DNA of 64,000 bases from Nemertoderma westbladi (taxonomy: Eukaryota; Animalia; Xenacoelomorpha), in assembly GCA_032718475.1 (NCBI GenBank), contig JAUCBJ010006887.1, forward strand, positions 62,001-126,000, read 5' to 3'. Below the pieces are notes generated by a model. The model searched no databases, was not told the DNA's origin, and saw nothing but the letters and a program-made list of their open reading frames with translations. The translations under genes were made by a program, and so were the position numbers. Each line of letters starts with the position of its first letter. Position 1 is the stretch's first letter. Positions 3,164 to 47,120 of the stretch are shown one piece after another.

Positions 3164-3231
3164 CTTTTGTCTGTTGGTGGCTGGTGGTATCTGAGTCTAT
3201 TAGGCTAGGGCAGCAGTTGTTGTTTAGTTAC

Positions 3232-3768
3232 TGTGACGGGATCATCCGGAGATGAACCCGATTTATCCTGTTTTAGTTCACGCGTCCCCGCCGTGTGAAA
3301 GAGTGTAAGTTGAGGTTACTGTTGTTCGTTATATTGTGATCTTGAGACGCGATATAGATATAGATATAGATTGATGTTATACACTGACGTTCACAGGTTG
3401 ACGGGATGACGGTAACTAAAATCCCGGTAATCTGTAATTGTAACTTACTGTACCACCAGTAACACTGAGATAACTGAGGTAATGTGATTACTGCTTACTG
3501 GTTATATCGCACGGTGGCCTTATTGCTACTCAATCGGTGCCAGCCCCCCTCTGATTGGTTGCTACCCTTGTTGGCGCCCTTTGAGGTGTTCCCGTTCACC
3601 CCAGCTATTCTCTCCCTTGTCAGGATACTAACCCCTGACCCTTATTGTGTGCTTCTCCTTCCCATTCTGTTGGGGAGACACGAGTTGGTTTGGGACCTAA
3701 TCTCGTGTCCCCCAATATTGCTTATTGGCTTAACTTTGTGGAGTATTGGCGGGATTGATTCGCTAACA
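3232..3768 (-). repeat. Putative 5' LTR of E1 (~537 bp)
   Basis: Minus strand begins TGTTAGC at the satellite junction and ends GTCACA. Contains CCAAT (~3554-3558), TATAA (3506-3502) and initiator TCAGTT (A at 3475, 31 nt after TATA). Inner boundary is inferred because the partner LTR is outside the window. Confidence 0.6.
3470..3560 (-). promoter_or_regulatory. Pol II core promoter in the E1 LTR (CCAAT - TATA - Inr)
   Basis: AACCAATCAG, GATATAAC and TCAGTT on the minus strand with canonical TATA-Inr spacing of 31 nt. Confidence 0.5.
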
Positions 3769-6700
3769 GGGCTCCTAAAGTATCCTGCAGATTTTTACAG
3801 TAAGTATCCTGCAGATTTTTACAGTAAGTATCCCGCTGTCGAGCGGGCTCCTAAAGTATCCTGCAGATTTTTACAGTAAGTATCCTGCAGATTTTTACAG
3901 TAAGTATCCCGCTGTCGAGCGGGCTCCTAAAGTATCCTGCAGATTTTTACAGTAAGTATCCTGCAGATTTTTACAGTAAGTATCCCGCTGTCGAGCGGGC
4001 TCCTAAAGTATCCTGCAGATTTTTACAGTAAGTATCCTGCAGATTATTACAGTAAGTATCCCGCTGTCGAGCGGGCTCCTAAAGTATCCTGCAGATTTTT
4101 ACAGTTAGTATCCGCTGTCGAGCGGGCTCCTAAAGTATCCTGCAGATTTTTACAGTAAGTATCCGCTGTCGAGCGGGCTCCTAAAGTATCCTGCAGATTT
4201 TTACAGTAAGTATCCGCTGTCGAGCGGGCTCCTAAAGTATCCTGCAGATTTTTACAGTAAGTATCCGCTGTCGAGCGGGCTCCTAAAGTATCCTGCAGAT
4301 TTTTACAGTAAGTATCCTGCAGATTTTTACAGTAAGTATCCCGCTGTCGAGCGGGGTCCTAAAGTATCCTGCAGATTTTTACAGTAAGTATCCCGCTGTC
4401 GAGCGGGCTCCTAAAGTATCCTGCAGATTTTTACAGTAAGTATCCGCTGTCGAGCGGGCTCCTAAAGTATCCTGCAGATTTTTACAGTAAGTATCCCGCT
4501 GTCGAGCGGGCTCCTAAAGTATCCTGCAGATTTTTACAGTAAGTATCCGCTGTCGAGCGGGCTCCTAAAGTATCCTGCAGATTTTTACAGTAAGTATCCT
4601 GCTGTCGAGCGGGCTCCTAAAGTAACCTGCAGATTTTTACAGTTAGTATCCGCTGTCGAGCGGGCTCCTAAAGTATCCTGCAGATTTTTACAGTAAGTAT
4701 CCCGCTGTCGAGCGGGCTCCTAAAGTATCCTGCAGATTTTTACAGTAAGTATCCGCTGTCGAGCGGGCTCCTAAAGTATCCTGCAGATTTTTACAGTTAG
4801 TATCCGCTGTCGAGCGGGCTCCTAAAGTATCCTGCAGATTTTTACAGTAAGTATCCCGCTGTCGAGCGGGCTCCCAAAGTATCCTGCAGATTTTTACAGT
4901 TAGTATCCGCTGTCGAGCGGGCTCCTAAAGTATCCTGCAGATTTTTACAGTAAGTATCCGCTGTCGAGCGGGCTCCTAAAGTATCCTGCAGATTTTTACA
5001 GTTAGTATCCGCTGTCGAGCGGGCTCCTAAAGTATCCTGCAGATTTTTACAGTAAGTATCCGCTGTCGAGCGGGCTCCTAAAGTATCCTGCAGATTTTTA
5101 CAGTAAGTATCCCGCTGTCGAGCGGGCTCCTAAAGTATCCTGCAGATTTTTACAGTAAGTATCCTGCAGATTTTTACAGTAAATATCCCGCTGTCGAGCG
5201 GGCTCCTAAAGTATCCTGCAGATTTTTACAGTAAGTATCCGCTGTCGAGCGGGCTCCTAAAGTAACCTGCAGATTTTTACAGTAAGTATCCTGCAGATTT
5301 TTACAGTAAGTATCCCGCTGTCGAGCGGGGTCCTAAAGTATCCTGCAGATTTTTACAGTTAGTATCCGCTGTCGAGCGGGCTCCTAAAGTATCCTGCAGA
5401 TTTTTACAGTAAGTATCCTGCAGATTTTTACAGTAAGTATCCCGCTGTCGAGCGGGCTCCTAAAGTATCCTGCAGATTTTTACAGTAAGTATCCGCTGTC
5501 GAGCGGGCTCCTAAAGTAACCTGCAGATTTTTACAGTAAGTATCCGCTGTCGAGCGGGCTCCTAAAGTATCCTGCAGATTTTTACAGTAAGTATCCCGCT
5601 GTCGAGCGGGGTCCTAAAGTATCCTGCAGATTTTTACAGTAAGTATCCCGCTGTCGAGCGGGCTCCTAAAGTAACCTGCAGATTTTTACAGTAAGTATCC
5701 GCTGTCGAGCGGGCTCCTAAAGTATCCTGCAGATTTTTACAGTAAGTATCCCGCTGTCGAGCGGGCTCCTAAAGTATCCTGCAGATTTTTACAGTAAGTA
5801 TCCGCTGTCGAGCGGGCTCCTAAAGTATCCTGCAGATTTTTACAGTAAGTATCCCGCTGTCGAGCGGGCTCCTAAAGTATCCTGCAGATTTTTACAGTAA
5901 GTATCCGCTGTCGAGCGGGCTCCTAAAGTATCCTGCAGATTTTTACAGTAAGTATCCTGCAGATTTTTACAGTAAGTATCCCGCTGTCGAGCGGGCTCCT
6001 AAAGTAACCTGCAGATTTTTACAGTAAGTATCCCGCTGTCGAGCGGGCTCCTAAAGTATCCTGCAGATTTTTACAGTAAGTATCCCGCTGTCGAGCGGGC
6101 TCCTAAAGTAACCTGCAGATTTTTACAGTAAGTATCCCGCTGTCGAGCGGGCTCCTAAAGTATCCTGCAGATTTTTACAGTAAGTATCCCGCTGTCGAGC
6201 GGGCTCCTAAAGTATCCTGCAGATTTTTACAGTAAGTATCCGCTGTCGAGCGGGCTCCTAAAGTATCCTGCAGATTTTTACAGTAAGTATCCGCTGTCGA
6301 GCGGGCTCCTAAAGTATCCTGCAGATTTTTACAGTAAGTATCCTGCAGATTTTTACAGTAAGTATCCGCTGTCGAGCGGGCTCCTAAAGTATCCTGCAGA
6401 TTTTTACAGTAAGTATCCGCTGTCGAGCGGGCTCCTAAAGTATCCTGCAGATTTTTACAGTAAGTATCCCGCTGTCGAGCGGGCTCCTAAAGTAACCTGC
6501 AGATTTTTACAGTAAGTATCCGCTGTCGAGCGGGCTCCTAAAGTATCCTGCAGATTTTTACAGTAAGTATCCCGCTGTCGAGCGGGCTCCTAAAGTATCC
6601 TGCAGATTTTTACAGTAAGTATCCGCTGTCGAGCGGGCTCCTAAAGTATCCTGCAGATTTTTACAGTAAGTATCCTGCAGATTTTTACAGTAAGTATCCG

Positions 6701-20196: not shown

Positions 20197-21420
20197 TGTA
20201 AAAGCTTCTGTGGGATATAACTGGCCCCTTTTGCTTCGCAATCCAGTTTCCCCCCAGGCGCTGGAATACTCTAAAAAGGTTCTCTAACTGTATATATATT
20301 CCCCTCGCCCGCAAGGTACCGTTACAGGTGTTTTAACGGACATAAAAGTCATTCTGCTATATACGTGTTTTGGCGGACATGGTAAGGCAAAAAACCTGCA
20401 ATGCACCAACTACCTTTCACAGCTTAGCCGTGATGATTCATATTACGACATCTAACAGCTGGTTGCTGACATGGAAACAGCCATTGGATGCATGGTTCTT
20501 TGTTTGGCTTGAGCCAATCAGAGCGTTTTTTCCTGTCGACGTGTAGCTTTTCGGCCGATCATAAGGAGAGTGTTCAGTCTTACTGTTTTTACTTGATACT
20601 TTGTTGTTATTGCTGTCTAAGCCAGAAACACCGGCTCTAAGAACTCTAGTAAAACTGCTTAGATTATAGAAAGTATAACTGTTACCGGCGGTGTTACCTC
20701 ACTTAATGCACTAATCATATTGTTTGTACTGCTATTTACCGTCAGTTATTAATTGTATCTATTTGTTGATGGAAATATTGCTCTTTGGAGAATACGGATA
20801 AATCACCCAAAATTCCCAATTTTCTTGATACACTACAGGTTAGAGAGGCGGGCTATATATAACAATTGCGATTTATATCAATGTGGTGTGTATTGAATCT
20901 AATGTTATTTAGTAGACACTACCTGAGTCAATTGCTGTTCTCTTTATGTGTGATCAAATATACTGACGGTCGGCAGAATAGTGTGCATGATTGTGAGTGT
21001 GATGTGACTGGTAACAAAGCATTTCCTAAAGAATGCGACTTATACTTTAATCATAAGCCTTATCGTTGCGTTTAGTATAAGTCCTAGCTCTGTGTAAATA
21101 GATAGAGCGCCACGTCCTAAAGGAACTGTTAATATTTCCCGAAAGTTAATAATATCTGTCAGAAATTACATTTTAGTGATCTATCGAATAATACAATAGG
21201 TTTACACTGCAACCTTACACTGCAATAATAAAATCTAAGCATCCGAATTCAGCCTCCCGGGTGTAGATCCATCGGGTGAATGATCGCGCATGGGCTGGCT
21301 TCGGCTAATGTTTTGTTTATTAGCATAAAATATTGTCGTATGCTAAAGGTGTGTTAATTAACTAAAAGACATATAAATTTTGGCAGGTTAAACTGCTAAA
21401 GGTCTTCAAAAGCGCGAACA
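20197..21420 (+). repeat. E2 5' LTR
   Basis: Direct repeat of 30846-32069 with TG...CA ends; the ORF track shows the same 69-aa translation in both copies. Confidence 0.97.
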
Positions 21421-21440
21421 GTAACAGTTATACTTTCTAT
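21421..21440 (+). promoter_or_regulatory. E2 primer-binding site, non-tRNA type, complementary to its own LTR
   Basis: gtaacagttatactttctat is the exact reverse complement of 20666-20685 (atagaaagtataactgttac); it does not start with TGG. Confidence 0.8.
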
Positions 21441-21784
21441 TGCAGTGTAAGCATTAAATACAGTTTAATACTGTTCTGTCGAACAGTAACAGTTATAATC
21501 TTATTGCAGTAGGCAATAAGGTTGCAAAATACCGTAGTGACTGGTAAAACTGAACCGGTACTCTGTAGGTCAGTAGGCCTAACTGTCATCACCGGTACCG
21601 GTACTGCTGTACAAGTACATTTAGTATTATTTCGATTGTGATCTATTGTATATTGTAGGCTGCCAGGGGAATAGGGATTGATCACCCCTCATTCTTTTGT
21701 ATAGTTTACTTATTTCTGTCGGTTTTATTTACTAGTAGGCTAATATTGAGCAGAAGGCGTGTGACCCTGCTCAGATTGTTCAGA

Positions 21785-23535: not shown

Positions 23536-23665
23536 ATATTATATATATATCACGCTACACTGAGTAGCAGTATCGGTAATTAATTATTAGGCTAACAGTG
23601 ATACTGAATTACTAGACTTGCTTTAACTGTAATATAGCAGTAGGCATTCAACTGTACAATCAAAC

Positions 23666-26600: not shown

Positions 26601-27862
26601 GCGCGAAACATCATAGCTTGTTACACAGTGAGTTCGAACGAGACAACCCGAGTCAGGTAAGTGAGCCCAAATCACATGTCCAATTCAGTGATGTGAACGA
26701 CACTGACCAAAGTTCTGAGTGGGAAGGATTCTATACGGACGAATTCTCCGATGCCAACGAATCCTGTTATCTAATAAATACCGCAGTGTATCGAGCACTT
26801 ACTTACGAAAAAGACATCAACGATGAGTTTCCCCAAACTACTTTCGCCAAACAACCATCTTGGAAAGCTCCAGCTTCCAACGTAGGAATCAGAGAATTTC
26901 CTGTAGTTCAAGTAAGAGTTCACGGTCTTAACAAAAGCTACATAGTGAACGCCCTCCTTGACTCCGGCAGCACAGGAACATTCATCGATCAAGAACTAGC
27001 CGAAGATATCTTTGCTGGACAACCCAAGTTCCGGACTAAATTGAATATGTCAGGAATTATACAGGTTTGGAAATCTACCCTAACGGCAGATTACTATATA
27101 GGTGCGTTGTCCACCCCACAGGATAAATTAGGAGAACAAAGTATAAGGTCAGTAAAAATGGTAGCAATAAAGAACTTCGCTACTACCCAAGTAGCACCTT
27201 ATAACTGGGACGAGGACGAGAGCATCCAACATCTTGAGATACCTCGATTCCAAACCGATTATCCTGGAGTGCAAATCCTCATCGGCCAAAATGCGCATGA
27301 GGCGCTCGAGCCATTAGAGAAACGGCCTGCTCAACCGCAGCCACTACAAACCTATGCGGTAAGAACTAGAGTAGGTTGGTACTTCACTGGCCCTTCCCGT
27401 AGAACTCTCAAAGAGAGATTACCTCAACAACAGGTATACCAAGTAAAGGGGGAAGTGGAGAGCAGTGAAGTGGACGAACTAACTGAGGGAACACCATACT
27501 CCTCAGATAATGACGATATTAACTCCAATGAAGATCAATGGAGACATCGCCCCGAGATGATTAATCTAGCCGACATCGCTTCCAGAGGAGCGACTCCTCA
27601 AGAACGGATAGATACTCCCGGCTGGTTAGGTGGACCCGACTCCCTAAGTAAAGAAGAAGATGAATGGCCTCCCCACCTTAACCCGGCTGAGATTAGACAG
27701 GCCAAGGGAGCGGAGAAAGTAACACGACAACCCAATCACCCAGCTGGTCGTTTATGTTTACTGAAAAGAGACCAAAAACTGTCCGGAAACTATGGAAGGC
27801 AAGATACTCTTCCTACGACCACTTCCCTAATCCGACAAATATCTAGGGACTCCATAACGTAA
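23666..27862 (+). CDS. gag: E2 Gag-protease polyprotein (DUF1759-like capsid region, three zinc knuckles, aspartic protease) with short remnants of RNase H and integrase
   Basis: KFNGDEMKWLPF...EKLRFLIKCLEG; CALCDGPHRLSAC, CYNCLRRGHQRRTC, CAKCGAKHHSLLH; LLDSGS; GWYFTGP; WRH...NLADIASRG...WLGGP; no YVDD and no DDE core. Contains a 12-bp ESEV repeat at ~24077-24163. Confidence 0.92.
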   Translation: MADTRQTLSDSLLETTACFSDQSVENPRPRSETPHTVRRATPAVVVLEPRLVEKISQFAKLVKRRWSAIGTRAQVKRDQEEAIKQQQPPSQEPGPQWSDSSSSLDTVERTPERGAKMADTVYDGRPACGESTDATSSQVESEVESEVESEVESEVESEVESEVESELTSAEKPRTRDAIDIYLSDYQRFLGDEELRRRLSGLSPNSEGTKLVLDAIDAEMLAANQAECDEKLRLVRVQEEQIKKRRIEEQKTAAMAEAIADAEAERKAAAAEVEAERKAAKAAAAADAEAERKVAKEVREAERRASEQTTQLELENLQETQDSINKQFTANQMQMMSRSTPKRQGYTSSEEGETTDPEGGGNRSRLSRRRKTSHRHKLPDLPPAVKRQLTSTDLGSAEPIEQFIQVKRLPTIVDEPEIIRPVVPKVTSVLETPTLPELNSKFPLHSTTLPVPGGTVHANTPVQIAEREINNLSPVVPRQPATMLATPASAVEWVEEGRRGMNLLLGQMQETVHQLKGTVRESRAELQEVQQSIALERDKLVNIQKGIPIPPVTLCQPVRSEVLHAQGVEPIRIYTASEVETPITNPIKGDYRPVINDIPYRPDNDPRNLYTDNSILNNTMVQESFTRQMARTEARQAVKVGEIVKFNGDEMKWLPFNEYYKDSIQNSVLSNGEKLRFLIKCLEGPPKLMALKFIGHPDGLRQVWDTLNIRYGNKDNIAKYLYTKLVAPRHFLSSEIIEFSDEIQEICRQLDWLGKSHEYQSSMVIGAVVSTLPKGGVCTRWDKKVLYMNEQQRRSPTMADLMSFLDSEVKLQLIRQAREKTSENKVSEKPDSRRRIIPVCYTDDGESQASQEEDSGKDTAKSYYNNKTYKDVSKYKSRTSDRREQVTTTPPTSPKRIHGRKPEERTRVQNVNQVKVSNIKPKCALCDGPHRLSACAEFLKKSMADRRGVLWDKRLCYNCLRRGHQRRTCYSDARCAKCGAKHHSLLHSEFERDNPSQVSEPKSHVQFSDVNDTDQSSEWEGFYTDEFSDANESCYLINTAVYRALTYEKDINDEFPQTTFAKQPSWKAPASNVGIREFPVVQVRVHGLNKSYIVNALLDSGSTGTFIDQELAEDIFAGQPKFRTKLNMSGIIQVWKSTLTADYYIGALSTPQDKLGEQSIRSVKMVAIKNFATTQVAPYNWDEDESIQHLEIPRFQTDYPGVQILIGQNAHEALEPLEKRPAQPQPLQTYAVRTRVGWYFTGPSRRTLKERLPQQQVYQVKGEVESSEVDELTEGTPYSSDNDDINSNEDQWRHRPEMINLADIASRGATPQERIDTPGWLGGPDSLSKEEDEWPPHLNPAEIRQAKGAEKVTRQPNHPAGRLCLLKRDQKLSGNYGRQDTLPTTTSLIRQISRDSIT

Positions 27863-29488: not shown

Positions 29489-29887
29489 ATGACGGAATTG
29501 ATAGAAGATGACCTTGATATTAGAGAGCGATATACTCTACCTTTACAAGCGTTTGTGGATAGCTTGATACGCGGTGAAGCCGATCCGACTATTACGGAGG
29601 ACGATGGTCGTTATATCGAACCGCTGATGTCCCAGGAACAACTTACGTGTGAATTGGACTATCGAAAATTAACCGCTCGTTATACGCATCGTAATGGTAC
29701 GTATATGGACTTCTTAACTACCGGCCATCCTATCGATTTACATGATACGGACGATGTAGACACCGAAAGGGAAATGGTTCTATTTAAATATCATACCCAG
29801 CGGCGTCGTAACGATAAACCGAGAATAGATCACGAAAATTCTATTCGTAACAGACTGGGAAGACGAACCAATATGTCTAGAATCTGA
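29489..29887 (+). CDS. E2 3' accessory ORF A (acidic N-terminus, unknown function)
   Basis: 132-aa ATG ORF preceded by a possible CAG acceptor; coding-like composition inside an AT-rich region. Confidence 0.5.
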   Translation: MTELIEDDLDIRERYTLPLQAFVDSLIRGEADPTITEDDGRYIEPLMSQEQLTCELDYRKLTARYTHRNGTYMDFLTTGHPIDLHDTDDVDTEREMVLFKYHTQRRRNDKPRIDHENSIRNRLGRRTNMSRI

Positions 29888-30468
29888 GGAGATTCAGCCT
29901 ATCGCGCTCGGAACAGCGACAACGATTATGGTATCAAGGTCCACAGTGTCTCACTGCGTACGATTATCGCCATGCCAACTATGTTTCTCGGCAACGTTGT
30001 CGGTTATGCGCATCGAGAGACCATGTTACGCCCATGGACACAAACGTCCGCTGTTCCTATTTCCACGAACAACCGGCGATGGAAATTTATTGCGCGTATT
30101 GCAGATTTAATAATTTGCACATTTTTGCCGTTTGCCCTCAATTTATGACTCAATGTCACCACTGTCCACTAAAGGGACACGCCAGTTTCGATTGCCCTTT
30201 TAATCGCGATTTGGAAAGCGTAGATGAAATGATCACACTACGTTACATTAGAGCTTGGGAAGCGAACGCTGATTTACATCGTGATTCGCGCCATCGCTAT
30301 TATCCTGGACGCGCTTACGAAGGAATTTATGCGTTCCATCCTTATCTATTCGCTTCTGTCGAACAGAAATCACGCATATCGAGTTACAGGAAGTATATCG
30401 ACGGCCTTACGAGTACCGAGCCCGCGAACGCGAGTTGGAAAGAACCATTAAACCAAGGAAGTTTCTAA
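29881..30468 (+). CDS. E2 3' accessory ORF B with three Cys/His zinc-knuckle-like motifs
   Basis: Frame is open from 29881 (ATG at 30034): CRLCASRDH...C, CAYCRFNNLHIFAVC, CHHCPLKGHASFDC. Confidence 0.6.
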   Translation, partial: NLRRFSLSRSEQRQRLWYQGPQCLTAYDYRHANYVSRQRCRLCASRDHVTPMDTNVRCSYFHEQPAMEIYCAYCRFNNLHIFAVCPQFMTQCHHCPLKGHASFDCPFNRDLESVDEMITLRYIRAWEANADLHRDSRHRYYPGRAYEGIYAFHPYLFASVEQKSRISSYRKYIDGLTSTEPANASWKEPLNQGSF

Positions 30469-30767: not shown

Positions 30768-30845
30768 CTGTTTAGAGTATTTTTATATTTTAGAAACTGT
30801 GATTTTGTATATTTTATAGACTTAAATCCCATTTTCTGGGAGCGG

Positions 30846-32069
30846 TGTAAAAGCTTCTGTGGGATATAACTGGCCCCTTTTGCTTCGCAATCCAGTTTCC
30901 CCCCAGGCGCTGGAATACTCTAAAAAGGTTCTCTAACTGTATATATATTCCCCTCGCCCGCAAGGTACCGTTACAGGTGTTTTAACGGACATAAAAGTCA
31001 TTCTGCTATATACGTGTTTTGGCGGACATGGTAAGGCAAAAAACCTGCAATGCACCAACTACCTTTCACAGCTTAGCCGTGATGATTCATATTACGACAT
31101 CTAACAGCTGGTTGCTGACATGGAAACAGCCATTGGATGCATGGTTCTTTGTTTGGCTTGAGCCAATCAGAGCGTTTTTTCCTGTCGACGTGTAGCTTTT
31201 CGGCCGATCATAAGGAGAGTGTTCAGTCTTACTGTTTTTACTTGATACTTTGTTGTTATTGCTGTCTAAGCCAGAAACACCGGCTCTAAGAACTCTAGTA
31301 AAACTGCTTAGATTATAGAAAGTATAACTGTTACCGGCGGTGTTACCTCACTTAATGCACTAATCATATTGTTTGTACTGCTATTTACCGTCAGTTATTA
31401 ATTGTATCTATTTGTTGATGGAAATATTGCTCTTTGGAGAATACGGATAAATCACCCAAAATTCCCAATTTTCTTGATACACTACAGGTTAGAGAGGCGG
31501 GCTATATATAACAATTGCGATTTATATCAATGTGGTGTGTATTGAATCTAATGTTATTTAGTAGACACTACCTGAGTCAATTGCTGTTCTCTTTATGTGT
31601 GATCAAATATACTGACGGTCGGCAGAATAGTGTGCATGATTGTGAGTGTGATGTGACTGGTAACAAAGCATTTCCTAAAGAATGCGACTTATACTTTAAT
31701 CATAAGCCTTATCGTTGCGTTTAGTATAAGTCCTAGCTCTGTGTAAATAGATAGAGCGCCACGTCCTAAAGGAACTGTTAATATTTCCCGAAAGTTAATA
31801 ATATCTGTCAGAAATTACATTTTAGTGATCTATCGAATAATACAATAGGTTTACACTGCAACCTTACACTGCAATAATAAAATCTAAGCATCCGAATTCA
31901 GCCTCCCGGGTGTAGATCCATCGGGTGAATGATCGCGCATGGGCTGGCTTCGGCTAATGTTTTGTTTATTAGCATAAAATATTGTCGTATGCTAAAGGTG
32001 TGTTAATTAACTAAAAGACATATAAATTTTGGCAGGTTAAACTGCTAAAGGTCTTCAAAAGCGCGAACA
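30846..32069 (+). repeat. E2 3' LTR
   Basis: Direct repeat of 20197-21420, preceded by the PPT and followed by TSD GTAAG. Confidence 0.97.
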
Positions 32070-34573: not shown

Positions 34574-35530
34574 TGTTGGGTTGGTGTAGTGGCGTAAATA
34601 TCACGTAATGATGAGTTCCCCACTGAACCGCCCAAATCAGGTAACCCGCCCGTCCGGTGGAAAGGAAACTGATAACTAAACGCTCCAGTGTGGTGTCTGT
34701 GCAGGCCGATCCCTACACAGCACCATAGTAATACAGAATATAGACAGAATATAAACAGATAACAAACAATAAATCAGATGCATTTACAAAAGATAAAATA
34801 ATATAAGTGAATACGTAAAATGAATAAGGAATCTGTACTACTAAAGAACTGTGCCATAAAACAACGATATCACCTTCCACTCTTGTCACCAAACCAACTG
34901 AACCAATATTGCTAATCTGTGTCTAATGTACCCCGGTAGCGCGGATGAATATTCCCTAGTAATGAGCCAGACTGGGGTTTAAGACCCCAGCCTGGCACCC
35001 GTACATAGCAAAACCCTAATTAAGTACATAATCCTACTACCTAAAACTAAAACCTACTGAAACCCCCCCAATATAACAATAAATACGTACTACATAATGT
35101 AGTACATATTGACCGCCTAATTGTACATTCCTATCTCTGGCAAGGCTAATATCCCATCTCCCTGCTACCTCTGTCTTGCTACAGGTGTGGCCTGGTGGCC
35201 AACCTGTTCCCGATCACGTGCTCTTTGTATACCTCGTTTGTAATCCACCTAGCCCCATGTCTGTATTGGTACCTTGAGAGTTGACTTGGTGGAAGGCGTA
35301 CGTAGTAACCTAATACTAATATTCCTGGAAATCACTGCAGCCCAGTCCCCCCCCCCCCCCCCCGTGTGCCCTGTAACTAGTCAGTTCCGTAGTCCTACCT
35401 ACACCTACAGTACAAACGCTACAGTAATTACCCCTACAGTACAAACATTAGGCTTGGGTGGGAAACCCGTGGTACTCGTATAATATAATGTGTGGATTTG
35501 GGAAGGGTAAGGTTCCGGTTGTCGGACACA
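34574..35530 (-). repeat. E3 3' LTR (957 bp)
   Basis: Minus strand TGTGTCC...CCCAACA; matches 46161-47120. Confidence 0.95.
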
Positions 35531-37935: not shown

Positions 37936-40900
37936 TTAGTGTGCTGCTTCAAGGAGGCAACACTTGTTGACTGGTCGACGATAGACCTTCCCTGAAGCCT
38001 TCCGTAGACTCACGGTGCGAACGTGACCATCCTCACTGTCGTGGGTCCTAACCACACGAGCCATGTCCCAGTCTCCCTTCTGTAATGTGTCATCGGTCAC
38101 AATGACAAGGTCTCCCAACTGTAGATCGCGGTACTCTTTGTTCCACTTTCTCCTCTGTCTTAACGTGGGTAGGTACTCTCGTACCCAGCGGTTCCAATAC
38201 TCGTTCTTACACCGCTGAGCGACGATATATGGGTTGCGTAAGTCTCCCTCGCCGATCTCTCCCAACGGGTCTCGGACAGTTACTGGGCCTACACCCAACA
38301 AGTGGTTTGGCGTGAGGGCCTCCAGTGACTTCGGGTCATCGGTGGTAGCCACCAGGGGTCGTCCGTTAACAATGGTTTCGACCTCGGCGAAGATGGTTCT
38401 CATCGCGTCTTCTGTCACTACGTGTCCGTGTGTAACGGCCTGAATGTGGCGTTTCACCACGCCCACCATAGCCTCCCAAACACCGGACATATGAGGGGCA
38501 TAGGGTGTGTGAAACGACCACTCGATTCCCAGTTCTTGGGTCTTCTCCACCGTCCCCTTGACGAAGGCCTGTTGTGCTCCTTCTAGTTCGTGTTCAGCAC
38601 CGACGAAGTTGGTTCCGTTGTCCGAGGAGATCTTCTTCGGTTCACCTCGGCGCGCGATAAAGCGCCGCAATGCGTTGAGAAACGCCGCTGCTGAAGCATC
38701 TGGTACTAGTTCGAGTGCTATAGCCCGCGTGGCATAGCAGACGAATATTATTCCATACCCCTTTCGCATGGTCTTGAGTACTCGTCGAGTCCATCGAACG
38801 TATAAATCGATGGGGCCGAACATATCCACCCCTGTGTGGTGGAACGGTACGAGTCCCGCCGTTACCCTATCTTTCGGTAGCGGCGCCATCAGCTGTTCTA
38901 GCCGTCTATGCCATATCTTCTTACATTTAATGCAACCGCTGAGGATCTTCCTCACGGTTTGCCTGAGTCCAGTAGCGGTGAAGCGTTTACGCACCGCCAC
39001 TATCGTCGCATCCTTACCCCCATGCGCGATGTCACAGTGTGTCTGCCACACCACTTGGTTCAGGGCCGTGGAGCCCGCAGGTAATATCATGGGCTGGCTT
39101 GCCACTATGAAATCCTTGGCGTTTGCCAACCGGGCCACGGATGCTACCATGATACCACCCTCCAACTGGGGTGCTAACTTTCGTAGCGGACTGCTCTTCT
39201 GTACAGGCTTACCCTCCCTGAGCCTCCTCCACTCCTCAGGGTAAGCTCGGGCCTGTACGTAGGTCACTACCATCCTCTCTGCCTCCTGTATAGGCAACCT
39301 GATGGGTATGGTCTTGGTTATTCGGTACTTAGCTAAGGCTATGAACCAAGCCACCCTGTTGATCGTCCTCCTCCACGTTGAGGACTTGTCTATGATCCTG
39401 TCAATCCGGGGGTCTCTGACCGCCGGTGTGGTCACCATGGAGCACACCCGGACCTCCGGGTCCGCTTTCAGAAGCTCCGACGCATTGGCCTCTGGGAACA
39501 AAGGCCAGTCCTTCCTGTTGGGTAGGAAAGTCGGCCCGTGTTGCCACAGGTCCTCTTTCTGTTCGAAGGGGACCTCTAGGCTCCCCCTCGATACAAGGTC
39601 AGCTGGGTTCTGGTCAGTGGGGCAGTAGCCCCAATCACTAACCTCTGTTAGGGTGCGGATATAGTCCACCCGGTTGGCGACGAATACTTTGAATCGCCTA
39701 CTCGGGTGGCTGATGTATAGCACCACAGTGGTGGCATCAATCCAATATCTCACTAGTACGATGCACCCCAGGGCCCTTATAATGACCTGGGCCATCTGCA
39801 CGGCCAGTACCGACGCCATTAGTTCTAGGCGCGGTATGGTGGCCTGTGCTTTGGGTGCTACCCTTGCTTTGCTATAGACCAGACGTGGGCGGTATTTGGC
39901 TGACTGCTGGTGCAAGTAGGCAACTGCCCCATACCCCACGCTGGAGGCGTCCGCGAACACATGTAGCTCTACAGCTGCCATGTCCCCGTTTGGAAAGTAA
40001 GGCCGTGGGATAATGAGACGGGATATTTGTTCCAGGCTCATTAACCAGGCGTTCCACCTGTCGGCCATCCTGGCAGACACCGGAGCATCCCACGCTCCAT
40101 TGTCTAAAGTCACCTCCCTCAGAATCTGTTTTCCTACAAGTATGTTTGGTGCCACAAGGCCCAGTGGGTCATATATCCGTGAAATGAAAGACAAGTAGGC
40201 CCTCCTCGTATGTACCACCTGAAGAGGAGCCTTAAACTTGTATTCTAGTACGTCTGAGGCTTTCTCCCAGGAGATGCCCAGTACCCGAGAGTCTGGCTTA
40301 CTCGGGTCTGATGTTACCAGTGCCGAGGTGGTCTCCGGGTTGGCACAGTCTGGTGGGATGTATGAGGCCGGCTGCCCCATATCTCCCCCCAGGAGGTCGC
40401 CATTGTCATCGTCGGCGCTCGGGTCTGATACCTTTCCCTCTTCCTTGTCCATCGCATACATGAACTTGGGTGAGTTGGAGCGGAACTTGGTAAGGTTGAA
40501 ACCGCCCGTGGAAAGGCAGTCGCGGGCCGTGATGGCCAGCTGGATGAGGTCGGCTTCGGAGTTACCCGACTTCATCCCATCGTCAACATAAAAATCGTTT
40601 GTTATAAAGTCTCTCACGGGCGGAGCCACCGACTCACTCGCGGTAGTGCGTCGTAGTGCTGTGGTGGCCACACACGGGGAACACTTAGCCCCGAAGATAT
40701 GTACCAACATCTGGTACACCTCCGGCGCTGTGTCCAGCTGATCCCCACTATACCACAGGAAACGCTGGCTGTCCGCGTCGTCTTCATAAACGAAGACCTG
40801 GTGAAACATGGCCTCTACGTCACATGTGAAGGCGTAGAGGCCCATGCGGAACCTTAGCAGGATGTCAACCCCGCTATTGAAAACATTGGGTCCCTCTAAT

Positions 40901-43527
40901 AAGTAGTCATTAAGCGATTTACCCAAGTATTTCGCCGCTGCGTCGTTGACCAGTCGCAGCTTGGATGCCCCTTTGGTAACGTGTAGGGGCAGATAGTAAG
41001 TTCGAGGAGACTCGGGTGCCCCCGCCGTGAGTTTACGGGCCCACCCTTTGTCTATATACTTCTGAATCTGTTTCTCAACAAATTCGTGTTTGTCAGGGTG
41101 TTTAGTCAATGACCGTTTGAGTCGGTTGAGTCTCATCTCCGCCATGGTTCTATTGTTAACCAAGGGTACTGCTCGATCTTTCCAGAGCATTGGAGCTGAG
41201 TAATGCCCGCCGCTCAAGATCATCTCCCTGTTCAATACATCGGTCGATATCTTGTCCGCCTGTGAGGCGCCCACGGCTGGGTTATATAAGCCCTCGGTGT
41301 CTATGTCATAGAGCCTTTCTAGGTCGCGCCTGGTTTCTTCCTCTCGTTCTCGGACCTCCTCCAATGTGAGTTCCGAAGACTCGGTGGGGTGCCCTTTCCC
41401 GGCCACGGTGAAGACTGGTCTAGCCAGCCCTGCACTGTGTCTGTCGGGCTGCTCATCAATGTCCTTTACGGGTCCCGTCATACACCAACCATATGGGGTT
41501 AGCATGACCTGGGGGTCCCTTTCGGGGTCTGGTCCTTCGATGGAAGGCTGCAGTAGCCGGTGAGAACCTGGGCAATCTATACCAATGAGTACTGATACAT
41601 AGGGTACATCCAGGTCATTGGGTATGTTAAAGTTCAGTCCTCGGGCGTGTGTGTATTGTTGAATTTCATCGGCCGAGGGCCGGTCTGCCGGTACGTTGAG
41701 CTCGGGTAGAACCCGAGCCTCAACAAGGTCCGACTTATATTGGGAATATGTCACAATAGATTTGAATCGACATAGAATCAGGTCGTACTCTACGTCTCTG
41801 TCCGGGTTGGCGATGGTACAGAGTTGCATAAATGCCTTCCTTCGTTTAACTTGAAGGCGGTCTGCAACCACTCTGTCCATCATCGTTATCGCTGAACCTC
41901 CGTCTAAGAGCCCCAAAGTGGTTACCTGCTGGCCGCGGTTATCACATACCGCTAATGCAACAATCCTCAGGTACACATAGGGTTTAATCTTCGGTGGTTT
42001 CCGCAACCTCCGTCTCATGGGGAAGACAGGGAAGGCCACCTGCTTATCGGCCACCCTCTCCCCCGCTGTCCTACTATCCGCATGTTTATGCGCCTGCTGC
42101 TCGGTGGACTTACCGTCCCCCTCTGTGTTCTTACTATCGTATGGGCATGCCCGCCCAGAGTGCCCTGTTCGGGCACAAGTCCAACACAAGTGATGCTTCC
42201 TAGCATACGCCTTGTGTGTGTCGGCGTCCATCTTCTGCCAGTTTCTGCACTCAATCGTTCTGTGAGACGTTCCCCTATGGAACTGGCAATACCTTTCTTC
42301 GTTGAAAGGGAACTCCCCGATGTCTATATGGAAGACATCTTTCACCCATTGCCCACTTCCCCTGCTCGCTGTGGGTGGGGCGCTTCCGCTTTTAGATTCT
42401 TCGAAGCGGACCTGTCGATTGTTAGTTGGTGGGGTCGACCCGCCCCGACTGCTCTCCCGCGAAGGCGATCGGCCCGTCGCTCGATTATGCGCCGGTTCCG
42501 ACGGTCTACCCCTGTAGTTGTTGTCCCCAACGTTGTTACAGGCGAATTTTTGGGTATTGCTCGACTTCCAATTGGATTTGAAACGGCCCGTGGGGTATTC
42601 CCTTTTCCCACGGTCTCCTTGTTCCTGTCGACTTCGCCCTTTATCCTTGGGGTATTTTAAACAGCGCTGATTAGCGCTCGCTGCCTTGTACTCCATGAAG
42701 TCAGCAAATTCTCCTAGCGTTGCTCGGCGATGTTGCGTAGCTGTAATCTTTGTCACTTGCTGCGCCCAGCTGCGACGCAGATGTAGTGGTAGTACATCAA
42801 CCACTTGATTCAGCAGCCCGCCCGCCTTGAGATGGTAGGTCTCGCCCATCGTCTCGATGGAATTAATCAGCTGATTTATTCGATCGCTGTATTCGGTCAT
42901 CTCGTCTGGTGTTTCAACCCTCACCCCATCAGTGAGGTGAAATATGGCGTCATCAATGATCTGTTCCGGATCGCCATACCGATCCTCTATCGCCTTCCAG
43001 GCCTTCCTGAACCCATTCAACTGGCCCTGGAAACGATTAACGAGTTTCCTCGGGTCACCCGCTAGATAAGTCGCCAAATAGGTTAGTCGGCGGGTGTCTG
43101 ACATTTCCTTTGTTAGAATTTCGTTGGAAAACAGAGCCCGAAATTGTATGTATTCCTCGGGGTGTTTCCCATCGAATTTAAAGGCTAAGGATTTTGGCAG
43201 CTCATTCTGCTCACGTATAATGTGGAGCATTTTCGCTGTCGAAACCGCCTCGTTATCGTGGGTTGAGTTTGTGTCATTGTACACGCGCGGTGATGAGTCC
43301 GCCCGTGTTGACGTGGGCTCCTCCGACGGTCCGAAGGGGTCTATATACCGTCCGACCCCGTTGGTAGGGTACGCAAGCGGAGGTAGCTCAAACCCCGGTT
43401 CACCCAACCGACTTCCCGGACGTGGGTAATCCGGGTATTGTTCTCTACCTGGGGACTCGCCCGTTCGCCTCCCTGAAGGGGGAGGGTCTGGGTGAGTTGT
43501 ACTTTCATATATGGAATTCTGTTGGGG
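37936..43527 (-). CDS. pol: E3 Gag core-Pol polyprotein (capsid-like region, zinc knuckles, protease, RT, RNase H, integrase); frame open from the TGA at 43528-43530
   Basis: KFDGKHPEEY; CWTCARTGHSGRAC; LLDGGS; YLPLH...RLVNDAA; DVEAMFHQV; FYVDD; LHVFADAS, TIPRLEL, NPADLVSRG; H-H-C-C; GVDMFGP, SDNGTNF, GVWE; RRPVNKCCLL. Confidence 0.96.
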   Translation of the reverse strand, partial: PQQNSIYESTTHPDPPPSGRRTGESPGREQYPDYPRPGSRLGEPGFELPPLAYPTNGVGRYIDPFGPSEEPTSTRADSSPRVYNDTNSTHDNEAVSTAKMLHIIREQNELPKSLAFKFDGKHPEEYIQFRALFSNEILTKEMSDTRRLTYLATYLAGDPRKLVNRFQGQLNGFRKAWKAIEDRYGDPEQIIDDAIFHLTDGVRVETPDEMTEYSDRINQLINSIETMGETYHLKAGGLLNQVVDVLPLHLRRSWAQQVTKITATQHRRATLGEFADFMEYKAASANQRCLKYPKDKGRSRQEQGDRGKREYPTGRFKSNWKSSNTQKFACNNVGDNNYRGRPSEPAHNRATGRSPSRESSRGGSTPPTNNRQVRFEESKSGSAPPTASRGSGQWVKDVFHIDIGEFPFNEERYCQFHRGTSHRTIECRNWQKMDADTHKAYARKHHLCWTCARTGHSGRACPYDSKNTEGDGKSTEQQAHKHADSRTAGERVADKQVAFPVFPMRRRLRKPPKIKPYVYLRIVALAVCDNRGQQVTTLGLLDGGSAITMMDRVVADRLQVKRRKAFMQLCTIANPDRDVEYDLILCRFKSIVTYSQYKSDLVEARVLPELNVPADRPSADEIQQYTHARGLNFNIPNDLDVPYVSVLIGIDCPGSHRLLQPSIEGPDPERDPQVMLTPYGWCMTGPVKDIDEQPDRHSAGLARPVFTVAGKGHPTESSELTLEEVREREEETRRDLERLYDIDTEGLYNPAVGASQADKISTDVLNREMILSGGHYSAPMLWKDRAVPLVNNRTMAEMRLNRLKRSLTKHPDKHEFVEKQIQKYIDKGWARKLTAGAPESPRTYYLPLHVTKGASKLRLVNDAAAKYLGKSLNDYLLEGPNVFNSGVDILLRFRMGLYAFTCDVEAMFHQVFVYEDDADSQRFLWYSGDQLDTAPEVYQMLVHIFGAKCSPCVATTALRRTTASESVAPPVRDFITNDFYVDDGMKSGNSEADLIQLAITARDCLSTGGFNLTKFRSNSPKFMYAMDKEEGKVSDPSADDDNGDLLGGDMGQPASYIPPDCANPETTSALVTSDPSKPDSRVLGISWEKASDVLEYKFKAPLQVVHTRRAYLSFISRIYDPLGLVAPNILVGKQILREVTLDNGAWDAPVSARMADRWNAWLMSLEQISRLIIPRPYFPNGDMAAVELHVFADASSVGYGAVAYLHQQSAKYRPRLVYSKARVAPKAQATIPRLELMASVLAVQMAQVIIRALGCIVLVRYWIDATTVVLYISHPSRRFKVFVANRVDYIRTLTEVSDWGYCPTDQNPADLVSRGSLEVPFEQKEDLWQHGPTFLPNRKDWPLFPEANASELLKADPEVRVCSMVTTPAVRDPRIDRIIDKSSTWRRTINRVAWFIALAKYRITKTIPIRLPIQEAERMVVTYVQARAYPEEWRRLREGKPVQKSSPLRKLAPQLEGGIMVASVARLANAKDFIVASQPMILPAGSTALNQVVWQTHCDIAHGGKDATIVAVRKRFTATGLRQTVRKILSGCIKCKKIWHRRLEQLMAPLPKDRVTAGLVPFHHTGVDMFGPIDLYVRWTRRVLKTMRKGYGIIFVCYATRAIALELVPDASAAAFLNALRRFIARRGEPKKISSDNGTNFVGAEHELEGAQQAFVKGTVEKTQELGIEWSFHTPYAPHMSGVWEAMVGVVKRHIQAVTHGHVVTEDAMRTIFAEVETIVNGRPLVATTDDPKSLEALTPNHLLGVGPVTVRDPLGEIGEGDLRNPYIVAQRCKNEYWNRWVREYLPTLRQRRKWNKEYRDLQLGDLVIVTDDTLQKGDWDMARVVRTHDSEDGHVRTVSLRKASGKVYRRPVNKCCLLEAAH

Positions 43528-45972
43528 TCATTCAGAATTTCCAAATGAACGCATTGTTGTTCGTGGGGGGGGGGGGCTCGGTGAGCCCCCTTTTCTGCAG
43601 AGCTCCGCCAGATACCTCGACTCTGGCCTACTCCTGTGGGCGGTTGCGTCGGGCCTCTCGGAGGCTGACTCCCGTCCATCCCCTCTGTCCGTCTGCAGGT
43701 CCCCTGCTCGGGCTGCAGTCTCACTGATTGTCGGCACCGTCCGCGGGGCAAAGCCGACGGTCCCGCTCTGTCTGTTCACTCTCCCCCGGCTGGCGGTATT
43801 ATCTACCGCCGGCGCGAATTCTGGGGCCCCTACTCGAAGTCCCCTCGAGTTCGCCGTAGGGGAACTTCCCTGTTCCCCTTGCTCTGCGATAATTAACTTA
43901 CCAGTATTATCTTGCAGAAATTTGAGGGAGGTTAGCACTCTTAAGCCCTGGTGGTCCGCCTCCCTCGAGGCGTGGCTCTGTGCGTGTGTGGAGGCGGTGT
44001 CTACCTCCCCCTGTGTTACTCGGAACCCTAGTGCGGGCTCCCCCTGTCCAACCTGGAGCTGTCCTTCTCGCTCCCCCTGTGTCGCCTCCTCTGCTGGGAG
44101 CCCACCCCGATTCTGGGTGGGATAATACATTGCTGATCCTCTCGGTTCGTTTACCTCGTCGGTATCGACGACCACTACGGCCGGCGCTACCTGGGGAGGT
44201 TTCATGGCAGCCGGAGGCAGCTCCTGTATCGCTGTGATCCTGGCTGCGCCAGGCGGAGGCGGACCCGTAAAAATACCCGGGCCGCCCTTCCTGGTAGCAC
44301 CAGGCGGAGGCGGATCCGTAAAAATACCCGGGCCGCCGTAAAAACTCGTTCCTCTTATAACTGTGGGAATTATATTAGGTGTAGTGCTTATAGTAGGTGT
44401 AGTGGTGTGTGTAGTTACTACCGTAGGTACTACAACTATCGGTGGGGTGCTTACTGTGGGTGCTATAGTTGCTGCAGCTACTCCTACAGGTACTCCCCCT
44501 AATTCACCACTCCCTGTCACACTGGCTCCACCCGGCCCAACCGGTTGTTTTCTAGCCGGATGAGCTGGGCCCCTATGGAGCCCTATTACCGAGGCGGGTC
44601 TGCTCAGTTCACTAGTTCGTCGGCCCGGACTCGCTCTCGCTGAACGTACACTGTTATTGCTCACTCTGGACCCCACACTGCTACCCACAGTGGAGCCCCC
44701 TTTCACCCCGCGCGCTTGTGCCATCGCTAGCTTACGTATCGCTAATAAACGCGCCTCGTCTCTCACTTTATTATCAGCCCGCAATTTCTCTCTCGCTATC
44801 TCCTCGCTGTCCGCTCGTTGGGCCGCCTCAATCACTCTCTGGGCCGCCTCACGCGCAACCCTCTCACATTCAAGTTTTTGGTTCATTAATTCTCGCTCAA
44901 GAGTTTCCTCTCGGTCGAGCCTCTCCATCTCAAAGAGAGCCTCTTCATACTCCACTCGGTTTTGAATGGAGTCAGACGCGTTCGAATTTGAACCACGCGG
45001 CTGACTCGCACTGTCCCCAGGTTGTATCTCATCCTGGTCTCTGCCGTCACCGGCTAGGGTTATGCCAGTCCAGCCGTTTTGTGGCTGGCTGGGTATCCCT
45101 ATAAAAATGTTTCCCACCCTTACCTGTTGATTGAATAAACATTTATCAAACGCATCGTCCAATATTCCCCCGATGTCCGTCTCCCAGTGTTTGGCTTCCT
45201 CCTCGGCGCCTTGCTCTCCAAGAATCCTGAGGTAGTCGTTGACTACCTCTAGGGCTGCCGCCAGGTCGATATCCGGTCGTCCGGCAGTCGCCCAGGTCTC
45301 CAATCGTCTTCGCTGTAATCGAAACTGTCGCCCCGCTCGCTCGATCACCCCTGTGTCGAGCTGCGCTGGGGGCCGGTTGGGGTCCGAGGAAGAACGGAGC
45401 TTCCTCCGGTTCGTTGTCCCGTTGGGCCGTCCCATCGGGTTCGTCCGATCGCCTCTTTCTCGCGAGCGTCCTCGGGCTGGAAGTTTGGGTAGTGCTGGGA
45501 TTAATTGCGAGGGTTCCCGGTCTGGGTCCACCCCGCTTCCCTTGTCGTCGTCTATCGCCGGCTCCGGTCTGGAGGGAGGTGATCTCGATCTCTCCCGGCG
45601 TTGGTGTTCCTCTGGGAACCGTGCCGGACCGGCGGGAGGTGATGGCGGTTCTCCTCGTTGTGGTAACTCAGTCGGGAGTGACTGCGTCGTTGCCGTGATT
45701 AACTCGTCTATCCACGTCCGTGTTTCATCGGGTGTCGTGGTCCCGGCCGGCCGCCCGACGGATTCTTCCGTCGACGGGATAGGCGGGGATTCCCGGGAGC
45801 TCGGGCCCACGGGGCTGCCGCGCCCCGATACCGGGTTGCTCAAGTCCAAGAAGGGACTCGAGGCTGTAGCTGGGGCAGCCATTGCTGCCCCGCCAGTGGC
45901 GGGTTGAACCCCGGGTTCAACCTGGCCAGGTGCCGTCGCTGGCTGACTGCCAGAAAGTAGACTGTCTGACAT
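43528..45972 (-). CDS. gag: E3 Gag N-terminal region (814 aa), in the same frame as pol
   Basis: ATG ORF ~190 nt after the 5' LTR; DEIQPGDSASQ plus coiled coil; separated from the downstream ORF by a single TGA. Confidence 0.85.
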   Translation of the reverse strand: MSDSLLSGSQPATAPGQVEPGVQPATGGAAMAAPATASSPFLDLSNPVSGRGSPVGPSSRESPPIPSTEESVGRPAGTTTPDETRTWIDELITATTQSLPTELPQRGEPPSPPAGPARFPEEHQRRERSRSPPSRPEPAIDDDKGSGVDPDREPSQLIPALPKLPARGRSRERGDRTNPMGRPNGTTNRRKLRSSSDPNRPPAQLDTGVIERAGRQFRLQRRRLETWATAGRPDIDLAAALEVVNDYLRILGEQGAEEEAKHWETDIGGILDDAFDKCLFNQQVRVGNIFIGIPSQPQNGWTGITLAGDGRDQDEIQPGDSASQPRGSNSNASDSIQNRVEYEEALFEMERLDREETLERELMNQKLECERVAREAAQRVIEAAQRADSEEIAREKLRADNKVRDEARLLAIRKLAMAQARGVKGGSTVGSSVGSRVSNNSVRSARASPGRRTSELSRPASVIGLHRGPAHPARKQPVGPGGASVTGSGELGGVPVGVAAATIAPTVSTPPIVVVPTVVTTHTTTPTISTTPNIIPTVIRGTSFYGGPGIFTDPPPPGATRKGGPGIFTGPPPPGAARITAIQELPPAAMKPPQVAPAVVVVDTDEVNEPRGSAMYYPTQNRGGLPAEEATQGEREGQLQVGQGEPALGFRVTQGEVDTASTHAQSHASREADHQGLRVLTSLKFLQDNTGKLIIAEQGEQGSSPTANSRGLRVGAPEFAPAVDNTASRGRVNRQSGTVGFAPRTVPTISETAARAGDLQTDRGDGRESASERPDATAHRSRPESRYLAELCRKGGSPSPPPPRTTMRSFGNSE

Positions 45973-46149
45973 CCTAGGTACGGTAGCCTATGGAGGGACT
46001 GACAGGTCTGAGTTACGGAATAATGGAATACTTTTTTGGCCTATCTTACAGTTTTTTAAGGCCACTGCCGGTTCGCGGGAAGCCGCGTCGCGGGTCTTTG
46101 TCGTGTCGTTATCGAGGCTGTCGTTTTCTGAGACAGCCCCCACTCGTGA

Positions 46150-46160
46150 CGTTGTTTTAT
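46150..46160 (-). promoter_or_regulatory. E3 primer-binding site, non-tRNA type, complementary to its own LTR
   Basis: Transcript-sense ataaaacaacg directly follows the 5' LTR and is complementary to LTR 46443-46453 (transcript-sense cgttgttttat). Confidence 0.7.
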
Positions 46161-47120
46161 TTTTGGGTTGGTGTAGTGGCGTAAATATCACGTAATGATG
46201 AGTTCCCCACTGAACCGCCCAAATCAGGTAACCCGCCCGTCCGGTGGAAAGGAAACTGATAACTAAACGCTCCAGTGTGGTGTCTGTGCAGGCCGATCCC
46301 TACACAGCACCATAGTAATACAGAATATAGACAGAATATAAACAGATAACAAACAATAAATCAGATGCATTTACAAAAGATAAAATAATATAAGTGAATA
46401 CGTAAAATGAATAAGGAATCTGTACTACTAAAGAACTGTGCCATAAAACAACGATATCACCTTCCACTCTTGTCACCAAACCAACTGAACCAATATTGCT
46501 AATCTGTGTCTAATGTACCCCGGTAGCGCGGATGAATATTCCCTAGTAATGAGCCAGACTGGGGTTTAAGACCCCAGCCTGGCACCCGTACGTAGCAAAA
46601 ACCCTAATTAAGTACATAATCCTACTATCTAAAACTAAAACCTACTGAAACCCCCCCAATATAACAATAAATACGTACTACATAATGTAGTACATATTGA
46701 CCGCCTAATTGTACATTCCTATCTCTGGCAAGGCTAATATCCCATCTCCCTGCTACCTATGTCTTGCTACAGGTGTGGCCTGGCGGCCAACCTGTTCCCG
46801 ATCACGTGCTCTTTGTATACCTCGTTTGTAATCCACCTAGTCCCATGTCTGTATATTGATACCTTGAGAGTTGACTTGGTGGAAGGCGTACGTAGTAACC
46901 TAATACTAATATTCCTGGAAATCACTGCAGCCCAGTCCCCCCCCCCCCCCCCCCGTGTGCCCTGTAACTAGTCAGTTCCGTAGTCCTACCTACACCTACA
47001 GTACAAACGCTACAGTAATTACCCCTACAGTACAAACATTAGGCTTGGGTGGGAAACCCGTGGTACTCGTATAATATATGTGTGGGTTTGGGAAGGGTAA
47101 GGTTCCGGTTGTCGGACACA
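46161..47120 (-). repeat. E3 5' LTR (960 bp)
   Basis: Matches 34574-35530; its inner end reads CCCAAAA instead of CCCAACA. Confidence 0.95.

Follow-up and report, generated by a model that had tools for sequence, protein, structure and literature searches.

By what primer does a retrotransposon begin to copy itself when the site for a host transfer RNA (tRNA) is absent? The question is raised by three long terminal repeat (LTR) elements, termed E1, E2 and E3, in 64,000 nucleotides (nt) of Nemertoderma westbladi DNA (GenBank assembly GCA_032718475.1, contig JAUCBJ010006887.1, positions 62,001 to 126,000; this whole stretch is called the window, and positions are counted within it). An earlier note, made from the letters of the window, had assigned all three to BEL/Pao and proposed that they prime themselves. 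According to the ICTV profile, members of the Belpaoviridae are primed at an 18-nt site by host tRNA-Arg or tRNA-Gly, and the replication of BEL/Pao elements is called poorly understood (PMC8742986). The primer sites of E1-E3 do not start with TGG, so none of them is a site of the ICTV type; in its place, at the primer-binding position, stands a complement of 9-20 nt to the element's own LTR. That the primer is supplied by the element itself, in one manner or another, is very probable, and on balance it is likely that the three elements begin minus-strand DNA synthesis from an internal stretch of their own R region, the 5' copy of which would act in cis.

Primer sites complementary to the elements' own LTRs

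The complementarity is exact over 20 of 20 nt in E2, 11 of 11 in E3 and 9 of 9 in E1, running in each case from the first base after the 5' LTR (Table 1). These matches, their start at the LTR end and the lack of TGG after all three 5' LTRs had been reported in the earlier note and were all recovered: in a scan of offsets from -4 to +7, the longest match lay at offset 0 in every element. Dinucleotide shuffles of the element's own LTR reached the observed length in 2 of 3000 trials for E1, 0 of 3000 for E2 and 3 of 3000 for E3. With the primer site itself counted, an equal or longer match to the LTR was found at 5 of 3201 internal positions in E1, 1 of 9395 in E2 and 6 of 10600 in E3, and the six cross-pairings of leaders with the LTRs of the other elements gave 4-7 nt only. 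The LTRs of E1, E2 and E3 are without significant mutual similarity (best E 0.22), and to that extent the pairing is conserved while the sequence is not, as had been claimed; the claim holds less well for the sites, since those of E1 and E2 have their first five letters in common and nearly all sites of the relatives described below start with GT. The suggestion that the primer is longer than the 11 nt of Tf1 had to be given up, the paired part being usually 10-12 nt, the same as in Tf1; any extra length would lie in the unpaired 5' part.

For E1, the earlier note had cautioned that the inner LTR boundary was partly derived from the match itself. High-depth contigs of sequencing runs X2 and X3 (one sample) start exactly at 3232, as would be expected because the assembly graph should fork at an LTR end, and the boundary is therefore now independent of the self-match. 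One contig of run X1 spans both the site and the complementary segment, each unchanged. Among the E1 contigs, no variant is listed at 3223-3231 or at 3412-3420 (the segment being covered by the contigs of one family only); seven positions in 3211-3222 vary.

Primer sites of related BEL/Pao elements

When E3 Pol was aligned with 20 relatives and the alignment used as query, metagenome contigs yielded 78 loci and genome bins 23; viral contigs gave no locus with the single E3 protein as query and one distant locus with the alignment. The 23 pol loci in bacterial genome bins (L080-L102) most likely represent animal host DNA in those bins. From the 102 loci, 21 were scored with LTR ends fixed by LTR pairs (those of L008, L056 and L062 being set partly by eye) and 18 with ends judged by eye. 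The unscored loci comprise L077, part of whose LTR is missing, and 62 others, mostly without a readable 5' LTR end; TGG sites are seen in three of the unscored loci (L035, L065 and L066). Both contiguous and GT-AG-spliced matches between site and LTR were scored, at offsets 0-8.

Eleven of the 21 pair-defined loci carry TGG 1-7 nt after the LTR, and in all 11 the best self-match is at most 7 nt. The ten loci without TGG belong to eight families, and nine of them match their own LTR over 11-12 nt, contiguously in L071 and across a GT-AG junction in the other eight (L076, L078, L082, L087, L089, L091, L100 and L101); the tenth, L095, scores 8, or by eye 10 of 11 with one mismatch. In 542 cross-family pairings, a match of at least 11 nt arose once contiguously and four times spliced, and one of at least 9 nt contiguously 22 times. 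Among the by-eye loci, for which the scoring is partly circular, nine of 18 reach 10-16 nt (L015, L049 and L072 contiguous; L031, L039, L048, L059, L069 and L085 spliced), L058 reaches 8 and the remaining eight show no match.

Sister families alter site and LTR in step, as seen in L082/L087 (two positions), L039/L048 and L015/L072. The sites of E3 and L071 are alike in 9 of 11 letters, with both differences mirrored in the respective LTRs. Such compensatory changes between sister families argue against one host tRNA as the primer, and pairing of one single host RNA with all these sites is impossible.

In the junction-type primers, the upstream exon contributes 3-9 nt and the downstream exon 3-8 nt, with a total near 11; unless the first exon is as short as that, the stretch must therefore lie inside the RNA. 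The AG that precedes the segment in many relatives was considered as a start site, an idea dropped because it resembles a splice acceptor and has a matching donor. A splice-junction primer was also considered for E1-E3 and rejected, the spliced scores being 8, 19 and 8 against contiguous scores of 9, 20 and 11, with the 19 of E2 made up mostly of its contiguous stretch.

Several relatives merit separate mention. The predicted LTR introns of L039 (337-374) and L048 (181-217) are only 37-38 nt long, and it is between these sister families that primer changes are compensated. L031 has a predicted spliced primer of 16 nt (83-89 and 118-133) with AATAAA inside it; in L082 and L087, AATAAA follows right after the primer. 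The leaders of L012 (122-150), L020 (56-80), L021 (16-40) and L051 (64-90) start with CA followed by TT(T)CG or TTAG; TGG is absent from them and the scoring gave no self-match, and they are possibly a third kind of primer site, or else their partners were lost at contig ends.

In an unrooted FastTree phylogeny of 84 rows, all TGG-labelled loci fall to the same side of one branch, and E3 is placed next to them; in a quick IQ-TREE phylogeny of 44 rows, also unrooted, E3 is nested among TGG loci. A tree constrained to part all 19 self-type rows from the 11 TGG rows scored 6.8 log units higher than the quick IQ-TREE tree (p-AU 0.64), and a single origin of the self-type elements is possible. E3 itself forms a long branch, at most 41% identical to any row; no close relative of its Pol was found, the best matches being 30-40% identical.

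From complementarity to primer: proposed mechanism and competing explanations

The case is slightly better than even that a large, mostly aquatic branch of BEL/Pao gave up tRNA priming in favour of an internal R stretch, with many families splicing an intron from the LTR and host splicing gating reverse transcription; E1-E3 would belong to this branch as forms without an intron, the primer being written anew into the site in each cycle. Transcription would begin some 45-110 nt upstream of the 3' end of the stretch, and the 5' copy of the stretch would anneal to the primer-binding site. A nuclease, most likely the reverse transcriptase (RT)/RNase H of the element by analogy with Tf1, would cut just 3' of the stretch and leave a 3' OH facing the base that directly follows the LTR, and from this 3' OH RT would copy U5 and R back to the cut before jumping to the 3' R. 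The sequence upstream of the cut would be taken from the 3' LTR copy, and plus-strand synthesis would write the primer back into the site, so that the two would stay matched while drifting. With strong-stop DNA ending at the cut, everything upstream, intron included, would derive from the 3' LTR, which may be why an intron is retained in the LTR even though the primer needs its removal. In many relatives, the same primer would be built by splicing an intron out of R, of which E1-E3 have the intron-free form; were the 3' copy also spliced, the intron would be lost and contiguous forms such as E1-E3 would result. E2, for its part, would depend on RT from a partner element.

The two copies of the primer site in E2 share 12 nt and differ by an insert of 4-5 nt. 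Site 2 matches the LTR over 12 nt, after which 4 nt have their match in the LTR at a point 9 nt further upstream. Each insert thus has its counterpart in the LTR, that of the first being in register and that of the second shifted upstream by 9 nt, as would be expected if the site is rewritten from the primer.

While start sites, cleavage and splicing are all inferred from the letters, there is indirect support, from the splice-junction relatives and from the promoter spacing of E1 and L071, for a segment that lies 3' of the start site. Among E1-E3, the motifs CCAAT, TATA-like and TCAGT occur in canonical spacing in E1 alone, about 55 nt before the stretch, and L071 has a TATA box about 125 nt upstream of it. 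The earlier note had pointed to a TCAGT initiator-like motif upstream of each segment; this agrees with the spacing in E1, but TCAGT occurs three times in the LTR of E1, twice in that of E2 and four times in that of E3, and E2 and E3 offer only TCAGT or CCAAT motifs.

A number of observations weigh against priming in cis by an internal stretch. Convincing promoter spacing is confined to E1 among the window elements, and TCAGT is common in these LTRs. The predicted pair probability of the duplex is near 0 in E1 and E3 at all 5' starts tried, and folds forced to include it are less stable by 4.7 kcal/mol in E1 and by 0.2-7.4 kcal/mol in E3. In contrast to the relatives, neither AATAAA nor ATTAAA follows the stretch in E1 and E3, and in E2 such a signal is some 540 nt away. 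The 5' LTR of E3 ends in AA, and the element has no target duplication. Half of the by-eye loci (9 of 18) are without a match of at least 10 nt, their LTRs often being cut by the contig end, and L012 keeps much of its LTR yet scores 7. L071 matches only its own 3' LTR, its 5' LTR being another form; its contig thus combines a 5' LTR of the acceptor type with a 3' LTR that has no intron, and may be a misjoin. The splice donor of L089 is weak. Finally, a long unpaired 5' arm would give plus-strand copying no obvious stop. Self-priming as claimed in the earlier note is well supported in the sense of a self-supplied primer (E1-E3, nine of ten non-TGG loci against none of 11 TGG loci, and covariation), but the predicted folds of E1 and E3 disfavour the duplex.

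That disfavour would be of no consequence if the self-encoded primer acted in trans. Here the 5' LTR or solo LTRs would give rise to a short transcript, which would be spliced if it holds an intron, end at the nearby poly(A) signal, be packaged, anneal to the site on unspliced genomic RNA and be trimmed to the duplex edge. Short spliced RNAs would indeed arise from the A(A/T)TAAA found 0-31 nt 3' of the stretch in all seven scanned relatives whose stretch was located, and within the stretch itself in L031; no cis fold is needed, and the retention of the intron is accounted for equally well. Still, this alternative is unlikely, if the most serious one: it demands precise 3' trimming, for which there is no citable precedent, E1-E3 lack a nearby poly(A) signal, and pairing in cis is predicted in E2 and in 11 of 13 relatives (mean pair probability of the duplex at least 0.7 for at least one 5' start). 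Improbable, too, is a purely structural role of the pairing, in packaging, dimerisation or translation control, with a host RNA such as a tRNA fragment as the actual primer. Such a role would suit the GT(A) with which nearly all sites start and the description of BEL/Pao elements as tRNA-primed (PMC8742986), but past these first letters the sites vary by family, each tracking its own LTR, and the pairing ends no more than 8 nt from the LTR end, the point from which priming has to proceed. Moreover, self-pairing is seen in none of the 11 TGG elements, and no tRNA gene was found in the window and no Rfam match in 20100-48000, scans that also returned no self-encoded tRNA.

Slightly less probable again is the exact mechanism of Tf1, in which the RNA would start at the first base of the stretch and the primer would be its first 9-20 nt. 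The modal paired length of 11 nt is that of Tf1 (PMC7175516), the U5-leader duplex of E2 resembles that of Tf1 (PMC10085805; the comparisons with Tf1, sushi, Tcn1 and TAR made here draw on parts of the cited papers), and plus-strand copying would find a natural stop. Against this, the junction-type relatives would require first exons of 3-9 nt, and both the promoter motifs of E1 and the TATA box of L071 point well upstream of the stretch, at the distances given above. The least probable of the explanations is priming from the 3' LTR: the copy of the stretch there, close to the poly(A) tail, would anneal to the site and close the RNA into a circle, and DNA synthesis would begin after the tail has been cut off. 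The stretch would be present there whatever the start site, and in relatives it is near the poly(A) signal; however, junction types would need a spliced 3' copy together with an unspliced 5' copy to keep the intron, the cut would remove part of the landing site for strand transfer, and no precedent was found.

Priming by an internal R stretch in cis may be set beside the systems already known. Self-priming has been described for Tf1/sushi and predicted for the plant Tcn1 and TAR elements (PMC7175516, PMC6317226, PMC10085805, PMC4600332, PMC5341516). Tf1 and Tf2 of Schizosaccharomyces pombe, Tj1, Tosmo1-3 and Tf1/sushi elements at large likewise have a site of about 11 nt complementary to their own LTR and use no tRNA (PMC7175516, PMC10085805, PMC4600332, PMC5341516). 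In Tf1, RNase H cleaves after the 11-nt self-primer (PMC7175516), and the 3' end of the complementary DNA carries the primer site as single-stranded DNA (PMC11042837). The flanking duplexes of Tf1/sushi have a counterpart in E2, whose 14-nt leader-LTR complement resembles the U5-leader duplex of Tf1; of the three-duplex "pretzel" of Tf1, E2 has this complement and a predicted central duplex, whereas the folds of E1 and E3 are without the central duplex. Tf1/sushi elements, however, are Ty3/gypsy chromoviruses, and E3 has the BEL/Pao set of Pfam domains and no chromodomain; moreover, the primer of Tf1 is the first 11 nt of its RNA, whereas that of E1-E3 appears internal and in many relatives would arise only after splicing.

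For the plant Ty1/copia TAR lineage (Houba, Osr-1) and the Tcn1 clade, self-priming has likewise been predicted from complementarity between primer site and LTR alone; under the criterion used there, a match of 10 nt or more that begins within 0-5 nt of the LTR, E2 and E3 pass and E1, with 9 nt, just misses. These elements are copia or gypsy rather than BEL/Pao, and a splice-made primer is not described for them in the parts of the source drawn upon (PMC6317226). With the tRNA-primed Belpaoviridae (BEL, Pao, Tas), E3 shares the order Gag-protease-RT-RNase H-integrase and a polypurine tract, and E2 shares TG...CA LTRs and a 5-bp target duplication, whereas the 5' LTR of E3 ends AA without a duplication and E1 shows a single LTR; the elements differ in the TGG-type sites, which the 11 fetched relatives have and E1-E3 do not. 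The fungal GalEa copia elements and bivalve TRIMs also lack a canonical tRNA site, but are reported to have a short local hairpin in the internal domain instead of an LTR match at the LTR end (PMC6934838, in the portions considered).

Cer7 of C. elegans, a BEL-type element, is said to carry the gene for a tRNA-like primer of its own. Its primer would thus be supplied by the element, as here, but would still be of the tRNA type.

No report of self-priming in BEL/Pao was found in a literature search whose scope did not extend to most subscription papers, Repbase, GyDB and supplements. The main text of three BEL/Pao surveys (PMC554778, PMC3118150, PMC6238403) is, in the parts covered, without the primer-site terms looked for, and the portions examined of PMC8220671, PMC3601003 and PMC6934838 report no BEL/Pao self-priming. 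If true, a self-primed BEL/Pao branch would represent a further origin of self-priming beside Tf1/sushi and plant TAR, with a different geometry in that the primer is internal and, in relatives, spliced together. It would also explain many aquatic BEL/Pao elements without a recognisable primer site, furnish a rule for annotation tools, and allow two questions to be tested directly: by what means RT locates and cleaves its own primer, and which of tRNA priming and self-priming came first in LTR elements.

The three elements and their surroundings in the window

Table 1. Positions of the LTRs, primer sites, complementary segments and coding regions of E1, E2 and E3 in the window
Feature	Position	Strand	Remarks
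E1 5' LTR	3232..3768	-	537 bp, TG...CA; second LTR beyond left window end
E1 primer-binding site	3223..3231	-	no TGG; 9 nt complementary to 3412-3420
E1 candidate self-primer segment	3412..3420	-	complement of site
E1 candidate promoter	3472..3558	-	CCAAT 3558, TATA-like 3506, TCAGTT 3477 (motif scan; putative start site)
E1 R stretch	3451..3459	-	predicted pairing with leader 3189-3181 (9/9), pair probability 0.81-0.93
E1 gag-like frames	1..3196	-	3196-758 and 870-1; frame broken at overlap; run off left window end
E2 5' LTR	20197..21420	+	1224 bp, identical to 3' LTR
E2 candidate self-primer segment	20666..20685	+	predicted pair probability 0.94-1.0
E2 primer-binding site 1	21421..21440	+	20 nt complementary to 20666-20685
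E2 leader stretch	21438..21451	+	complementary to LTR 21214-21227 (14/14)
E2 second copy of LTR end and primer site	21481..21512	+	site 2 starts at 21486, 65 nt downstream
E2 gag and protease-like open reading frame	23633..27862	+	1409 aa; DUF1759 E 1.8e-12
E2 3' LTR	30846..32069	+	identical to 5' LTR
E3 3' LTR	34574..35530	-	polypurine tract before it; ends CA
E3 gag-pol	37936..45987	-	one frame, one in-frame stop 43528-43530
E3 primer-binding site	46150..46160	-	11 nt complementary to 46443-46453
E3 5' LTR	46161..47120	-	960 bp; ends AA
E3 candidate self-primer segment	46443..46453	-	letters identical in both LTRs

The assignment of all three elements to BEL/Pao, as put forward in the earlier note, holds to differing degrees. 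It is firm for E3 on its Pfam matches, which comprise DUF1759, Peptidase_A17, RNase H, integrase (rve) and DUF5641 in the order protease-RT-RNase H-integrase, without a chromodomain match. It is good for E2, whose predicted Gag is similar to that of E3 (blastp E 2.6e-20). E2 has no Pfam match to RT, RNase H or integrase and appears to be a non-autonomous derivative with gag and protease only. For E1 the assignment is weak: its gag-like frames gave no BEL/Pao Pfam match and, in one restricted search, no database relative, and a hand-picked segment of the putative Gag aligns to the N-terminus of E3 Gag with a score of 62, a weak likeness that none of 1000 shuffles equalled; the pol of E1 falls beyond the window.

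The three elements are young. E2 is bounded by a 5-bp target duplication (20192-20196 and 32070-32074), and its LTRs have TG...CA ends. The LTRs of E3 are 98.7% alike; its flanks are different satellites (of 52 and 12 bp), and given the AA end of the 5' LTR and the absent target duplication, E3 may be a recombinant of two insertions joining two satellite domains, or a misjoin.

The E1 family is high-copy, with many relatives of 80-95% in runs X1-X3. These share U3 and parts of gag, most of R-U5 (3306-3443) being family-specific. One contig of run X5 follows E1 through the initial four letters of the primer site and then departs from the alignment, and some E1 subfamily therefore has another primer site. 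A second candidate site in E1, at 3441-3446 (6 nt), was rejected; its pairing costs more to form than that of 3412-3420, and contigs of related subfamilies leave E1 at 3444-3446. In E2, the AT-rich leader is 2.2 kb long with a 286-bp tandem duplication (21780-22353), and a small zinc-knuckle open reading frame (ORF; 29881-30468) precedes the 3' LTR.

A 52-bp satellite occupies about 3770-20196 and 32070-34573 of the window; E1, E2 and E3 all adjoin it, each at a different point of the unit, and the other flank of E3 (47121-47929) is the 12-bp satellite. Beyond the elements, an uninterrupted ORF of 1174 aa (58112-61636, minus strand) resembles IRAG2/Lrmp (EF-hand, MRVI1), which is odd for a gene that usually has several exons; it is possibly intron-poor or retrocopied. 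A sulfotransferase ORF lies at 49384-50352 (minus strand), and beside it, at 48200-49100 on the same strand, a candidate fragment of a decayed non-LTR reverse transcriptase was recognised by eye. Long inverted-repeat elements at 53438-53877, 56640-57300 (by eye) and 57317-57914 are probably miniature DNA transposons, and a 22-bp tandem array occupies 54420-55045.

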